Below, piece after piece: positions 5,131-31,771 of a stretch of DNA of 64,000 bases. Under the pieces are notes generated by a model that had not been told where the DNA came from, ran no database searches, and saw only the letters and a list, made by a program, of their open reading frames with translations. This stretch comes from Rubrivivax sp. (GTDB taxonomy: Bacteria; Pseudomonadota; Gammaproteobacteria; Burkholderiales; Burkholderiaceae_C). A program made the translations under genes and the position numbers. Numbering within the stretch: the stretch's first letter is position 1; every line of letters starts with the position of its first letter. The stretch spans positions 73 to 64,072 of the forward strand of contig JBKCUM010000192.1 in the NCBI GenBank assembly GCA_046318395.1, written 5' to 3'.

Positions 5131-9504
<4,374 letters not shown>

Positions 9505-27180: not shown

Positions 27181-28224
27181 ATGAGCTTCCTCTGGCCACA
27201 ACTGCTGTGGGCCCTGGTGACCCTGCCGCTGCTGGTGCTGGCCTATTGGTGGCTGCTGCGGCGGCGCAAGCGCACGGTGGTGGCGCTGGCCAGCATCGCC
27301 TTGCTGCGCCAGGCCGTGGGCCCGGGCCAGACCTGGCGCCGCCACGTGCCACCGCTGTTGCTGCTGGCCGCACTGGGCGCGCTGCTGCTGTCCCTGGCCC
27401 GGCCCGTGGCCACGCTGACCTTGCCGCTGGCCGACCGCACCATCCTGCTGGCCATGGACGTGTCCGGCAGCATGCGCGCCGAAGACGTCAAACCCAACCG
27501 CCTGGTGGCCAGCCAGGAAGCCGCCAAGGCCTTCGTGGCGGGGCTGCCGCGCGAGGTGCGCGTGGGCGTCGTGTCCTTCGCCGGCACGGCCGCCGTGGTG
27601 CAGGCGCCCACCACCAGCCGCGACGACGTGCTGGCCGCCATCGACCGCTTCCAGCTGCAGCGGGGCACGGCCATCGGCAGCGGCCTGGTACTGAGCCTGG
27701 CCACCTTGTTCCCCGACGCCGGCATCGACCTGCAGGCCATCACCGGCCAGCGCACCATGCCGCGCATGCTGGGCGACAAGAGTGAACGCGAACGCAAGGC
27801 CGCCGAGTTCAAACCCGTGCCGGCCGGCAGCTACAACAGCGCCGCCATCATCTTGCTGACCGACGGCCAGCGCACCACCGGCCCCGACCCCATCGACGCC
27901 GCCAAGATGGCCGCCGACCGCGGCGTGCGCGTCTACACCGTGGGCATGGGCACCACGCAAGGCGAGGTCATCGGCTTCGAAGGCTGGAGCATGCGCGTGC
28001 GCCTGGACGAGGCCACGCTGAAGAACATCTCGGTGCTGACCCAGGGCGAGTACTTCTACGCCGGCAGCGCCGAAGACCTGAAAAAGGTCTACGAAAGGCT
28101 GAGCGCGCGCATGGTGGTGGAGCGCAAAGAAACCGAGGTGACGGCCTTGCTGGCCGCGCTTGGCGCCCTGCTGGTGGTGGCCGCCGCAGGGCTGAGCCTG
28201 TGGTGGACCGGACGGGTGGTGTGA
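27181..28224 (+). CDS. VWA-domain membrane protein (BatA-like)
   Basis: N-terminal TM plus basic stretch (WWLLRRRKR). MIDAS motif ILLAMDVSGSM. C-terminal TM. Confidence 0.85.
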   Translation: MSFLWPQLLWALVTLPLLVLAYWWLLRRRKRTVVALASIALLRQAVGPGQTWRRHVPPLLLLAALGALLLSLARPVATLTLPLADRTILLAMDVSGSMRAEDVKPNRLVASQEAAKAFVAGLPREVRVGVVSFAGTAAVVQAPTTSRDDVLAAIDRFQLQRGTAIGSGLVLSLATLFPDAGIDLQAITGQRTMPRMLGDKSERERKAAEFKPVPAGSYNSAAIILLTDGQRTTGPDPIDAAKMAADRGVRVYTVGMGTTQGEVIGFEGWSMRVRLDEATLKNISVLTQGEYFYAGSAEDLKKVYERLSARMVVERKETEVTALLAALGALLVVAAAGLSLWWTGRVV

Positions 28225-28225
28225 G

Positions 28226-28248
28226 GCTAGCTGAATTAATCAGCGAGC
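28226..28248. terminator. hairpin at left island junction (possible bidirectional terminator)
   Basis: GCTaGCTGA-attaa-TCAGCgAGC: 8 of 9 paired positions with an AT loop and no U-tract. Lies between the VWA stop (28224) and the AIPR stop (28311). Confidence 0.3.
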
Positions 28249-28310
28249 ACCTCCGGCGGGCCTTCCCTTGGCTGCCAGTTGCGGGGAGGTCGCCAGAAGG
28301 CTGACTTGGC

Positions 28311-30005
28311 TCATCGCGTTGCGGCCAGCGGCAAGGCAAGCAGCTTTTGAATCAAATCTCCTCGCCGGAACGTCGCTGAGAGTTGGAGTGTGGAAACCGC
28401 CTTCTCTCCATACAAATCTTTAAGTGCGGCCTCAACGTCCAACGTCGAATCTCGGAAATAGCGCTCGCCCTTCTCGTCGACCAACTTCTTGGCGGCGTCG
28501 AAGGTCTGGTGGTTCAGCGCTTCCAGAGGCTTGCCCAACTCGTGCAACAAGCGCTGTCCCATTCGCATGGCGATGAAGCAAGAAGCGTAGCGCACCAGGG
28601 TCGGATCTGCCTCGGCTGGGCGCCGCCTGTGGTTCTCGGCAATCCGGTAGAGCAGCACAGCCAGCACCACCTGCGCACCGTTGACCTCTTTCGGAAAAAC
28701 CACGGTATACAGCTTGCCGAAGTGCTCACGCAACAAGAACTTGGCTTGATGCGGTGCACGGCGCCAAACCGCTAGCAAGGCTTCGGCAGCGGCGCTGGCT
28801 GTAACGTCAAGCGGTTTCGGCGGCGTGTCCATGCGCTTGCGTCGGTACTGGTAACCCAGTGATTCGACGCTGGCTTCCAACTGACGCTGGATCTCGTCGT
28901 TCGAGCGCAGATCCTTTAAGTCCACCGGGTTCTGGCTATTGGTGGCGTGAGTGATTTGCAGCACCACGTCTTCTTTGCCTTTGGGCAGTTCATATAGACG
29001 CACTAGCACGCTGGCATCCACCGGTAGGGCTTCACCGCGTTGACCCATCTCGGTCAGCGTTTTGTAGATAGTCATACAGGTCTGCGCACCGTTGACGATC
29101 TGAATGTTGTCGGCCTGAACCTGGTAATTGGCGCCCTGAAGGGCGTTGTATTTGAAGTGGTCGCAGATCAACGTCAGGCCGTTGTTGAAGAAATAGAAGT
29201 TCTCCGGCTGATCGGAACGCAGGGTTTCACGAATACCTTCGTTCACCCGGTTGCCATGCAGACCCAAGTAGCGCCGGATGTTGCGTTCCAGCAGGCGGTC
29301 GCCATGGGCGCGCATGAGCGCGGCCACTTCCGTGACAGGCATGCGGCCAATACACACCCGGCTGAAGTTCATGTCCTCGATGTTGGCCTTGCCCACCAAG
29401 CGCAAGCTGTCGTCCACCTGCTTGGCACGCTGCAAGATCCCGATCAAGACGTCGTGGTTGACATGCTCCCAGCTCACCTGCCCACCAAAATCAGCTCGAT
29501 CGATGGCGGACTGCGCTTGCCCTGCCCACTTGATACCGTTGTTGCAAGCGATAGCGCGAACGCGAGGGATAAAGCCGTCGCGCACCATGGCGCGGGCCTC
29601 TTCCACTTTAACCTTCAGCCGTTCGTTGATGGCACCGAGGTCCGCCGTCGGGTCAAAAATGTGGCGAATGGCATTGACTAGCGAGTGGATGCCGTCTTCA
29701 GGAAAGTTTGAATCGGCGTCCAGCTTGGTTTTGTACTTGGCCTGGAACAGCGTGACGTTGAACTCGCCGTCCACCTCTTCAGTGACCTGCATGGCGTCCA
29801 CGCCGAAATCACCACCACCATCGGTGACGCAGTCAAATGCTTCTTGGGCGTCCAGGTCCAGCATGGTCTTGACGCACAGGTAGACAAACGACAGCGGCTT
29901 GAGCCGATCGGGCGCGGTGATGTTCAGCTCGTGCTGGGCCCAGTGCACGATCTCGGACTGCACGCCAGTCAGGCGTTGGTCAATGATGGATGCGTTCAAG
30001 TTCAC
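28311..30005 (-). CDS. AIPR-family abortive-infection (phage resistance) protein
   Basis: 564 aa. GTG 30005 with GAGG six nt upstream. N-terminal PD-(D/E)xK-like DGGGDFGVDA...LFQAKY. AIPR core RRYLGLHGNRVNEGIRETL, FYFFNNGLTLICD, IQIVNGAQT (family recognised from memory of Pfam PF10592). About 50% GC. Confidence 0.8.
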   Translation of the reverse strand: MNLNASIIDQRLTGVQSEIVHWAQHELNITAPDRLKPLSFVYLCVKTMLDLDAQEAFDCVTDGGGDFGVDAMQVTEEVDGEFNVTLFQAKYKTKLDADSNFPEDGIHSLVNAIRHIFDPTADLGAINERLKVKVEEARAMVRDGFIPRVRAIACNNGIKWAGQAQSAIDRADFGGQVSWEHVNHDVLIGILQRAKQVDDSLRLVGKANIEDMNFSRVCIGRMPVTEVAALMRAHGDRLLERNIRRYLGLHGNRVNEGIRETLRSDQPENFYFFNNGLTLICDHFKYNALQGANYQVQADNIQIVNGAQTCMTIYKTLTEMGQRGEALPVDASVLVRLYELPKGKEDVVLQITHATNSQNPVDLKDLRSNDEIQRQLEASVESLGYQYRRKRMDTPPKPLDVTASAAAEALLAVWRRAPHQAKFLLREHFGKLYTVVFPKEVNGAQVVLAVLLYRIAENHRRRPAEADPTLVRYASCFIAMRMGQRLLHELGKPLEALNHQTFDAAKKLVDEKGERYFRDSTLDVEAALKDLYGEKAVSTLQLSATFRRGDLIQKLLALPLAATR

Positions 30006-30018
30006 TTCAAGCCTCGCT

Positions 30019-30330
30019 CTATTTCCGTGCCGACATTTTCTCTGCCACCCTCACATGATGCCCGTTGATGCGGTCACCGCCGAAGGTCTTGACCCATGTC
30101 GCGCGCTCCACGTCCTTGCCTAGGCCCTTGCCACAAGTGACGTTGTACTTTTGCAGCTTGCTGTGGCACAGCACACCGGCAGTCAAAAAGAAACAGATTC
30201 TCAAGCACACACCTTTGGTGAGGCAGGGGTTCCAGCAGATGGGGCACTTGGTCAGCAGAATAGGGAGGCCGACACGGAATCCCCGCTGGGCCGGGAGGGC
30301 GTAGCGGTGCCCAGTCAAGCTGTACGACAT
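30019..30330 (-). CDS. small Cys-rich protein, unknown function (degenerate Vsr-like?)
   Basis: ATG 30330 to TAG 30019; G/C-biased third codon positions. 7 Cys within about 40 residues (KCPICWNPC..C..C..LCH..C). Stops 13 nt before the AIPR start. Local echoes of Vsr motifs (see findings). Confidence 0.55.
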   Translation of the reverse strand: MSYSLTGHRYALPAQRGFRVGLPILLTKCPICWNPCLTKGVCLRICFFLTAGVLCHSKLQKYNVTCGKGLGKDVERATWVKTFGGDRINGHHVRVAEKMSARK

Positions 30331-30528
30331 CGCACGATCGTGTTGGACAGCACTTCTTCAGGGACGCCCTCGACCAGATGACCTTGGGCGCGAAAGTAGG
30401 CTGTCACCACCACGTCCACCATGTTCGCGAGACTGCGCAGTTCGCGCTCGGCAGCCGACTGCAAAGCCAACTTGATGCTGGGCGAGCGCTACGCGAAGAC
30501 TGACAACTTGGGACGTTGCTGCGACCAC
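30315..30528 (-). pseudogene. ribbon-helix-helix (CopG/Arc-like) reading frame with an apparent +1 frameshift
   Basis: Manual translation. Frame b from GTG 30528 reads VAATSQVVSLRV. After a TAG (30491-30489), frame c reads RSPSIKLALQSAAERELRSLANMVDVVVTAYFRAQGHLVEGVPEEVLSNTIVRCRTA*, with TGA at 30317-30315. Its 3' end overlaps the ATG of the Cys-rich ORF. The span is 214 nt, not a multiple of 3. Confidence 0.3.
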
Positions 30529-30550
30529 TTGCGACGCCTGCAAGGAAAAC

Positions 30551-30607
30551 CCTACTGGCGCACTAAGGTTACAGGTTGTCGGGCCCAGGTCGGCCTTACG
30601 GCGCACT
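30551..30607 (-). promoter_or_regulatory. direct repeats upstream of the cassette (candidate operator)
   Basis: CCTACTGGCGCACT (30551-30564) and CCTTACGGCGCACT (30594-30607), 43 nt apart. Located in the only non-coding stretch upstream of the RHH-like frame. Confidence 0.25.
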
Positions 30608-30637
30608 CAGTCAGTGGGCAGCATTGTCTTTGGCCAG

Positions 30638-31771
30638 TCAGGGCGTCACACGCAGCAACTGCCCGTCTGCACCGTCGGTCAGCAGGTAGATGAAACCATC
30701 GGGGCCCTGGCGCACGTCGCGGATGCGGCGTTTCAGCTCGGGCAGCACACGCTCTTCACCCACCACCTGGCGGCCGTTCAGCGTCAGTTTCACCACGGCC
30801 TGGCCACGCAGCGCGCCCACCAGCATCTGGCCTTGCCAGGCCGGGTAACGCGGGCTGGTCACGAAGGCCATGCCGCTGGGTGCGATGGACGGCACCCACA
30901 CCTTCAGCGGTTGTTCGAAACCGGGCTTGGGGCCTTCTTCGCCAATGCGCGTGCCCAGGCCGTAGTTACGGCCGAAGGTCAGCAGCGGCCAGCCGTAGTT
31001 TTTGCCGGCCTGCGGTTGGTTGATCTCGTCGCCGCCCTGCGGGCCGTGTTCCACCGTCCACAGCTCACCCGTGGCCGGGTGCAGGGCCGCGCCCTGGATG
31101 TTGCGGTGGCCCAGGCTCCACAGCTCAGGCGCCGCGGGGTTGAGCTTGGGGTTGTCGGCCGGCGCGCGGCCATCGCGGTCGAAGCGCACCACCTTGCCGA
31201 TGTGGTTGGCCGGGTTCTGCGCGTCATCCTTCAGGCGGCCGCGGTCGCCCAGGCCCAGGAACAGCGTGCCGTCGCGGCCAAAGACCAGGCGCGAGCCGCA
31301 GTGCAGGTCGCTGTCCACCTTCGGCAACTGGCGGAAGATGGTGCGCACCTCGGTCAATTGTTCGCCCACCAGCTTGGCGCGTGCCACGGCCACGCCGTTG
31401 GTCTTGTGGTCCCCGGGTTCAGCGAAGGTCCAGAAAACGAGCTGGTTCTTCGCGAACTCCGGGTCCAGCACCACGTCCAGCAGGCCGCATTGGCCGCGTG
31501 CCACCACGGGCGGCAGGCCGGTCAGCGGCGCGCCCAGGCGGCCATCGGCACCGGCGATGCGCAAACGGCCCGGCTTTTCGGTGATGAGGTAGCGGCCGTC
31601 CGGCAAGAAGGCCACAGCCCAGGGGTTGTCCAGGCCTTGCACCACGGGCGTGGTGGTCTGGGCCTGCACAGCGCCGGCCACGGCCAGCAGGCCCAGGGCG
31701 GCCACCGCCAAGCGCAGGGGTTGGGCGGCAGAAGAAGACAGGGGGTGGGGGGCTTTCAACATGGCGCGCAT
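30638..31771 (-). CDS. PQQ-dependent sugar (glucose/sorbosone) dehydrogenase, soluble beta-propeller type
   Basis: Inner ATG 31771 (or 31762). Signal peptide ..AVAGAVQAQ. Motifs GLDNPWAVAFLPDGR, GLLDVVLDP, HCGSRLVF, GHRNIQG, GPQGGDEIN. Confidence 0.85.
   Translation of the reverse strand: MRAMLKAPHPLSSSAAQPLRLAVAALGLLAVAGAVQAQTTTPVVQGLDNPWAVAFLPDGRYLITEKPGRLRIAGADGRLGAPLTGLPPVVARGQCGLLDVVLDPEFAKNQLVFWTFAEPGDHKTNGVAVARAKLVGEQLTEVRTIFRQLPKVDSDLHCGSRLVFGRDGTLFLGLGDRGRLKDDAQNPANHIGKVVRFDRDGRAPADNPKLNPAAPELWSLGHRNIQGAALHPATGELWTVEHGPQGGDEINQPQAGKNYGWPLLTFGRNYGLGTRIGEEGPKPGFEQPLKVWVPSIAPSGMAFVTSPRYPAWQGQMLVGALRGQAVVKLTLNGRQVVGEERVLPELKRRIRDVRQGPDGFIYLLTDGADGQLLRVTP

Follow-up and report, generated by a model that had tools for sequence, protein, structure and literature searches.

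The lactococcal abortive-infection protein AbiU acts as a single-protein system in which AbiUi alone suffices for resistance, giving 10- to 100-fold protection with a delay of phage transcription, and an AlphaFold model (AF2) of AbiU was superimposed on FokI (PDB 1FOK) in a 2026 review (PMC13064643). Genes of the AbiU1/AIPR family often accompany those of restriction-modification systems (PMC3506569, PMC2292703). Auxiliary nucleases embedded in the core loci of bacteriophage exclusion (BREX) systems were catalogued in 2026, but the accessible parts of the text and supplements of that catalogue do not mention AIPR as one of the embedded effectors (PMC12839542). Here, we analyzed a stretch of 64,000 nucleotides (nt) from Rubrivivax sp. 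(contig JBKCUM010000192.1, hereafter the window), in which an insert of 2,413 nt (28225-30637) carries an AIPR gene. An earlier note on this DNA had proposed that the insert is a candidate novel defence cassette made of AIPR and two small partners. We show collinearity between the insert and intact operons across the pglX-AIPR-pglZ junction. The insert is very probably what deletion has left of a type 1 BREX operon, acquired horizontally, that harboured an AIPR/AbiU-type gene, this gene being intact and most likely autonomous.

By blastn, window positions 30243-28265 (minus strand) corresponded to positions 6275-8256 of the locus L007 with 85% identity, and the aligned lengths were 1,984 nt at 85% identity for L007, L008, and L009, and 1,920 nt at 80% identity for L001-L006. 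The BREX-homologous stretch comprises ~240 nt from the 3' end of pglX, AIPR in its entirety, and 49 nt of pglZ. The native pglX stop codon (TGA, 30007-30009) is located 1 nt ahead of the GTG start codon of AIPR, exactly as in L007, and the AIPR stop codon overlaps the pglZ start codon as ATGA, as in intact operons. The translation of the pglZ stub, MSQVSLLATSPQLAAKG..., aligns with L007 PglZ, MRLISFLAASLQASAKG..., over ~16 codons, then diverges and stops.

All nine of the chromosomal and metagenomic AIPR homologues that were sampled (70-94% identical) were found inside complete type 1 BREX operons. The gene order was brxA-brxB-brxC-pglX-AIPR-pglZ-brxL in P0002, P0003, P0005, P0009, P0010, and P0011 (90-94% identity) and in P0056 (76%), and brxR-brxE-brxA-brxB-brxC-AIPR-pglX-pglZ-brxL in P0105 and P0109 (70-71%). 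When the six BREX core genes (brxA, brxB, brxC, pglX, pglZ, and brxL) were searched for in the window by tblastn, only the tail of pglX (30013-30384) was recovered, the other BREX genes being absent from the 64 kb. The insert thus resembles a type 1 BREX operon in its collinearity, at 80-85% nucleotide identity, and in the preserved 1-nt gap and ATGA overlap, but differs from it by the loss of five of the six core genes and the reduction of the sixth, pglX, to a stub of ~250-380 nt. It is a remnant, not a system, and is incapable of the methylation and phage exclusion performed by BREX. The view that the segment matches no described defence architecture was therefore abandoned, as it corresponds to an AIPR-containing operon of type 1 BREX, mostly deleted.

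The insert occupies the spacer between two convergent genes encoding a BatA/VWA-domain protein (VWA) and a pyrroloquinoline quinone (PQQ)-dependent glucose/sorbosone dehydrogenase (GSDH), whose open reading frames (ORFs) end at 28224 (+) and 30638 (-), in agreement with the placement given in the earlier note. The GC content of the insert (58.5%) is the minimum of the 64-kb window, compared to a window mean of 70.5% (standard deviation 2.7, same-sized stretches), and its tetranucleotide profile is the most extreme outlier in the window (L1 distance of 0.49 versus a median of 0.18), thus confirming the foreign, low-GC composition already noticed. GC at third codon positions was 0.73 in the AIPR ORF versus 0.93 in the neighbouring VWA gene. 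The three ORFs that had been described were all recovered on the minus strand, with lengths of 564 amino acids (aa) (28311-30005), 103 aa (30019-30330), and 51 aa (30315-30470); the 51-aa ORF indeed overlaps the ATG of the 103-aa ORF, which stops 13 nt ahead of the GTG of the 564-aa ORF. The same arrangement was independently assembled from at least four other samples, and the insert is thus not an assembly chimera. As previously observed, no integrase, transposase, or tRNA was found near the insert by gene annotation and tRNA scan. No att-like or boundary repeats were detected at its edges in a repeat search, and no RNA family of Rfam matched within it.

The insertion site was compared in 80 related Burkholderiales loci containing a VWA orthologue (L012-L091). 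The check for an empty site at the VWA/PQQ-dehydrogenase junction, suggested in the earlier note, was positive in nine of these loci, in which VWA and GSDH are only 15-76 nt apart; these include L016, whose GSDH is the closest to that of the window (80% identity). Neither AIPR nor PglX, PglZ, or any BREX locus was present at the VWA/GSDH junction in any of the 80 loci. The spacer between VWA and GSDH ranged from 15 nt to about 8 kb in relatives, the larger spacers having native GC, and many relatives had no GSDH within the ~10 kb fetched downstream of VWA. The empty sites, the lack of AIPR or BREX in relatives, and the native GC of the larger spacers together indicate that the insert is lineage-specific, and its foreign composition combined with the empty sites indicates that the segment was horizontally acquired. 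The possibility that islands repeatedly insert at the VWA/GSDH junction as a hotspot was also considered and rejected, since the larger spacers, of native GC, reflect ordinary synteny variation. Intact BREX+AIPR islands of several Burkholderiales and Thauera (L001, L004, L005, and L108) share one chromosomal site, located between the rnhB/SpoU-methylase genes and carA, unlike the VWA/GSDH site of the window.

The 103-aa ORF had been described as a Cys-rich Vsr-like miniprotein, but no match to Vsr or to any other Pfam or NCBIfam family was obtained. Its residues 26-103 aligned with positions 1033-1120 of the PADLOC PglX model (1125 positions, E = 6e-10), and BLASTP aligned the ORF with residues 1054-1131 of the 1135 residues of L007 PglX (59% identity). 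A word-indexed search with this ORF returned two sister remnants only, and an exhaustive phmmer search among 1.84 billion representative proteins was needed to reveal the relation with the PglX C-terminus. This search yielded 84 relatives, which, except for the identical remnant, align from ORF residues 25-26 onward and always with the very C-terminal end of the matched protein (such as residues 1048-1124 of 1131, or 1354-1424 of 1433). This search thus led to the C-terminal ends of PglX proteins and to no family of similarly sized proteins, and no homologue of the ATG and first 25 residues of the ORF was found outside the identical remnant in the exhaustive search. A fragment of a methyltransferase gene is consequently present in a segment that was thought to contain none.

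With about 30 diverse PglX sequences, the tblastn alignment began in all cases at window position 30255 or 30243. Homology to pglX up to 30384 was seen only in gapped tblastn alignments with PglX of L001, L004, and L005, and this extension is described as possible because these alignments run through a stop codon; the ungapped nucleotide identity to pglX is close to random across 30256-30384. An N-terminal pglX origin of the left spacer, raised by tblastx, was rejected, as tblastn with the same ~30 PglX sequences gave no such match.

The pglX fragment differs from L007 by 35 nonsynonymous and 14 synonymous codon differences, evenly spread over the codon positions (22/18/28), and from the sister remnant L011 by 13 nonsynonymous and three synonymous differences (7.1% divergence). 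For the 103-aa ORF as a whole, two synonymous and 15 nonsynonymous changes separate the window from L011. A premature TAG is present in the window at 30019-30021, four codons ahead of the native pglX stop codon, and explains the 13-nt gap between the 103-aa ORF and AIPR; it is missing from L011. The sister copy L010 contains an 18-nt deletion, by which the conserved KTFGGD motif is lost, and through deletion and nonsense change, sister copies encode small ORFs of different lengths (97, 103, and 107 aa). The cysteines of the 103-aa ORF replace R, W, and D at sites conserved in intact PglX. Judged from these alignments and changes, the 103-aa ORF is a chance frame through a decaying, neutrally evolving C-terminal fragment of PglX.

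In contrast, the AIPR gene differs from L007 by 154 synonymous and 41 nonsynonymous codon differences (codon positions 36/17/162), and the contrast in synonymous and nonsynonymous changes between AIPR and the pglX fragment, both compared to L007, is highly significant (Fisher p = 6e-11). L011 is the same remnant at the same site, and the comparison with its AIPR gene covers the first 159 codons, in which seven synonymous and no nonsynonymous changes were counted (1.5% divergence); the contrast with the pglX fragment was again significant (Fisher p = 5e-4). The AIPR ORF is full length, with the same start and stop as its homologues of 560-564 aa, and retains all of the invariant columns of a 38-sequence alignment. 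Its GTG start codon is preceded, 6 nt upstream, by a GAGG Shine-Dalgarno sequence.

The 51-aa ORF had been considered as ribbon-helix-helix (RHH)-like. Its match to Pfam RHH_5 (E = 0.051, 13.8 bits) is below the cut-off of 26, and its zero synonymous and four nonsynonymous changes between the window and L011 show no sign of selection; on this sequence evidence, the 51-aa ORF is to be regarded as noise. An additional ORF of 82 aa (30358-30606), in the pglX frame and further upstream, showed five synonymous and eight nonsynonymous changes between the window and L011 and has no protein homologues. The spacer at 30385-30637 holds most of the 51-aa and 82-aa ORFs, and the evidence supports neither ORF as a gene. 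This left spacer likewise gave no protein homologues and diverges by 6.3% between the window and L011. The outer ~290 nt of the insert may be leftovers of a larger island. A hairpin, GCTGA-ATTAA-TCAGC, is located at 28229-28243, 5 nt past the VWA stop codon and just beyond the pglZ stub; it is not followed by a run of T. The features of the insert and of its flanks are listed in Table 1.

Table 1. Features of the insert and of the two flanking core genes in the window (positions of the 64,000-nt stretch).
Feature	Coordinates	Strand	Evidence and remarks
BatA/VWA-domain protein, 347 aa, core flank	27181..28224	+	Pfam VWA_2, VWA, BatA; GC at third codon positions 0.93
Junction DNA, 40 nt, beside VWA stop	28225..28264		Outside blastn BREX homology
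pglZ 5' remnant	28240..28314	-	~16 homologous codons (28265-28314), then divergence and stop
AIPR/AbiU-family gene, 564 aa, sole intact gene of the insert	28311..30005	-	PF10592, PADLOC AbiU
pglX 3' pseudogene fragment, about last 83 codons, homologous core of the 103-aa ORF	30007..30255	-	PADLOC PglX, BLASTP to L007
Possible more-decayed pglX continuation, same frame, crosses TGA, contains the fortuitous ATG of the 103-aa ORF	30256..30384	-	Gapped tblastn only; weak evidence
Spacer, GC 61%, just downstream of GSDH stop	30385..30637		No matches
PQQ-dependent glucose/sorbosone dehydrogenase (GSDH), 377 aa, core flank	30638..31771	-	Pfam GSDH on identical gene

The assignment of the 564-aa protein to the AIPR family, proposed from motifs, was borne out by Pfam PF10592 (165.4 bits for a cut-off of 25; residues 239-489, model positions 1-273 of 308) and by the PADLOC AbiU model (E = 5.3e-45, model positions 28-479 of 537). 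The exact sequence is on record as 'AIPR family protein [Rubrivivax sp.]'. It belongs to a large and tightly conserved clade of proteins of 560-564 aa from Burkholderiales, Thauera, Stenotrophomonas, and Pseudomonas; the matches listed include over 120 clusters that are at least 69% identical. The window protein and AbiU (AbiUi/AbiU1) of Lactococcus lactis share the PADLOC AbiU and Pfam AIPR matches, are both single large proteins of about 560-590 aa, and both yield FokI in fold comparisons (PMC13064643 for the lactococcal protein). The window protein differs from AbiU in that it represents a Gram-negative, BREX-derived subfamily, known here from sequence alone, and has no abiU2-like HEPN neighbour. 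The AIPR core is also shared with MzaE of the MZA (MutL-Z1-AIPR) system (PADLOC E = 3e-18; NCBIfam MzaE positions 231-383), but an identity with MzaE was ruled out, as NF041935 scored 69.5 bits against an equivalog cut-off of 1050, only the core aligned, and the window has no MutL or Z1 neighbours.

Intact solo AIPR genes were found on plasmids of Aeromonas salmonicida (68% identical), beside recombinases, and of Picosynechococcus (60% identical), among toxin-antitoxin genes, with no BREX nearby in either case, and PADLOC treats AbiU as a single-protein system. The purifying selection in remnant-bearing copies and the solo plasmid copies suggest that the window AIPR probably works as a single-gene, AbiU-like defence; from these sequence comparisons, we consider it fairly probable that the protein functions on its own. 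The GSDH gene lies upstream of AIPR on the same strand, and a promoter/terminator scan detected nothing resembling a terminator between the GSDH stop codon and AIPR. Its expression would probably occur by read-through from GSDH, or from a cryptic promoter in the pglX tail. On some A. salmonicida plasmids (H6, NZ_CP022171.1, and H9, NZ_CP017144.1; L102 4629-5546), the solo AIPR gene is in two pieces or unannotated, and thus probably disrupted there. An ISAs4 transposase gene lies just downstream of the solo AIPR gene in pS44-2. On a Picosynechococcus plasmid, a hypothetical ORF of 47 aa (L103 11855-11998) ends 2 nt ahead of AIPR; local tblastn revealed no resemblance of this ORF to PglX, BrxC, or PglZ, and it is not an obvious BREX stub.

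The papers that we found contain no biochemistry of AIPR proteins, and the activity of the N-terminal domain was approached by prediction. The N-terminal motif GGGDFGVDA-x17-LFQAKY is invariant in 38 homologues and, read side by side, resembles the catalytic GDGGIDGV-x13-VQAKRW of E. coli Mrr. The predicted strand-strand-helix-strand order is compatible with a PD-(D/E)xK fold, and the best PDB fold match obtained with Foldseek was FokI. The domain thus resembles Mrr/FokI PD-(D/E)xK domains in its motif, with a compatible order of secondary structures and FokI as the top fold match, but no significant sequence-profile or structural match was obtained. A model of the N-terminal part only (predicted local distance difference test score, pLDDT, of 54) gave no fold matches, and a PDB sequence search with AIPR gave no match. 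When the N-terminal 225 residues were scanned alone, a sub-threshold and probably spurious Pfam match to AlkA_N arose at residues 76-133 (29607-29780; E = 8e-5, 23.3 bits for a cut-off of 26). In the AIPR core, an Rx4H string, RYLGLH (R245-H250; 29256-29273), within the invariant RRYLGLHGNRVNEG block recalls the HEPN motif predicted for AIPR (PMC3506569); it lies in a low-confidence loop (pLDDT < 50).

Several results weigh against our interpretation of the insert and of its gene. No BREX-bearing ancestor was found at the exact VWA/GSDH site, and for the leftmost ~250 nt (30385-30637) and the rightmost 40 nt (28225-28264) of the insert, a search of the plasmid collection gave no match and two metagenome scans gave no exact match. 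A BREX-embedded AIPR protein might need its BREX partners to work, the test of selection after the deletion is made of only 159 codons and seven substitutions, and no sigma-70-like promoter was detected by a consensus scan, which is a poor guide in a betaproteobacterium with 70% GC. Concerning the nuclease, older papers inconsistently predicted a HEPN (PMC3506569) or a ParB-like nuclease domain in AIPR; the AF2 model of the full-length protein is of moderate quality (pLDDT 73, predicted template modeling score 0.42); the match to FokI (2fok_A, probability 0.89, E = 0.29) is not significant, all fold E-values exceeding 0.1; hhalign of AIPR with E. coli Mrr gave a probability of 0.8%; and no Pfam nuclease family matched the N-terminus. 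The PD-(D/E)xK-like N-terminus announced in the earlier note is thus reduced to a motif-level resemblance to Mrr and a weak FokI fold match, Pfam, hhalign, and fold searches having returned nothing significant, and the arguments for and against a PD-(D/E)xK nuclease, as modelled here, are about evenly balanced.

Other explanations of the locus were also weighed. It is highly improbable that the insert is a genuine minimal cassette, in which the 103-aa protein and perhaps the 51-aa RHH-like protein would be functional partners of AIPR, such as a regulator, an antitoxin, or a sensor. The co-directional, tightly packed ORFs, the calling of the 103-aa ORF as a gene in several independent assemblies, and the faint RHH_5 match would fit such a cassette, but they are offset by the PglX origin of residues 26-103, the lack of homologues of residues 1-25 outside the identical remnant, the unstable length of the ORF among sister copies, the excess of nonsynonymous changes in both ORFs (15 to 2 and 4 to 0), and cysteines that result from R/W/D-to-C changes at PglX-conserved sites in a protein with no Vsr or Pfam match. 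From the proposal of a horizontally acquired minimal AIPR module, the horizontal acquisition and an AIPR gene without its usual partners can thus be retained, but not the miniprotein and RHH partners. We regard as somewhat unlikely a direct capture by illegitimate recombination of a ~2-kb BREX piece centred on AIPR, a full BREX operon never having been present at the site. The lack of BREX at this junction among the 80 loci, the lack of att-like repeats, integrase, and tRNA, and the different site (SpoU-methylase gene/carA) of the intact BREX+AIPR islands of relatives are consistent with such a capture, but the ~290 nt of DNA in the insert that is neither BREX nor native fits leftovers of a larger island. 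As no BREX-bearing ancestor was found at the site, decay in situ and the arrival of a truncated fragment are not distinguishable, and both lead to the same present-day object.

It is also quite unlikely that the whole segment is a dead relic, including an AIPR gene that would be unexpressed or BREX-dependent and intact only through the recency of the deletion. The lack of a detected promoter-like site, the embedding of all close chromosomal homologues in BREX, which suggests a functional dependence, and the broken solo copies of some Aeromonas plasmids (H6 and H9) would be expected for a relic. However, over the same period, the pglX fragment diverged by ~7% and acquired a nonsense codon and an 18-nt deletion, while AIPR diverged by 1.5% with synonymous changes only. 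In addition, the full-length AIPR protein keeps every family-invariant residue, plasmids from two distant phyla carry intact solo copies, and there is no terminator between the upstream GSDH gene and AIPR.

According to the BREX-remnant interpretation, an ancestral operon with the order brxA-brxB-brxC-pglX-AIPR-pglZ-brxL would have been acquired horizontally, and the Rubrivivax lineage would then have lost most of it, keeping AIPR whole together with ~250 nt (possibly ~380 nt) from the 3' end of pglX and ~50 nt from the 5' end of pglZ. What is left of pglX and pglZ is pseudogene debris. AIPR is under purifying selection and would most likely work alone, as a single-protein AbiU-like abortive-infection nuclease made of an N-terminal Mrr/FokI-like nuclease domain and the AIPR core. 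Triggered by phage infection, this protein may attack nucleic acid and thereby delay phage gene expression, and it may originally have been a second-line effector inside BREX.

With the insert read as a BREX remnant, the candidate novel defence cassette comes down to one known gene amid the ruins of a known system, a case of ordinary gene loss that is not a discovery priority. More generally, one conserved AIPR/AbiU clade is consistently embedded in type 1 BREX across Beta- and Gammaproteobacteria, so that the recently described BREX back-up effectors gain a named family; given that AIPR is not named in the accessible parts of PMC12839542, this is a small addition, with no new principle. The survival of AIPR under purifying selection after the loss of BREX argues for autonomous action, and the clade, which looks autonomous, is a tractable single-gene target for AIPR biochemistry. 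We would tentatively entertain the broader possibility that this clade is a dedicated, fully autonomous effector that backs up type 1 BREX as a second line and has been built into the operon repeatedly, at the pglX/pglZ or the brxC/pglX junction. The Rubrivivax lineage would then represent a natural experiment, having discarded BREX and kept the effector under selection. More speculative still is the extension that the retained pglX tail supplies the AIPR promoter.

Other BREX operons were observed to carry different inserted genes at the same junctions, which thus act as sites where accessory genes of defence or toxin-antitoxin type are accommodated. An Abi_2 gene (L004 5780-6589) and a MazE+PIN pair (L108 5866-6569) are located between brxC and pglX, and a ResIII/DEAD helicase gene together with a DprA-like/LDcluster4 gene is located between AIPR and pglZ (L098 3596-7027). 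In BREX loci of Stenotrophomonas and Pseudomonas (L099-L101 11687-15507; L110 11687-17112), pglX is called as two to three consecutive ORFs, one of 630 aa with Eco57I followed by 470-643 aa, which may correspond to a split gene, a frameshifted gene, or a separate specificity subunit.

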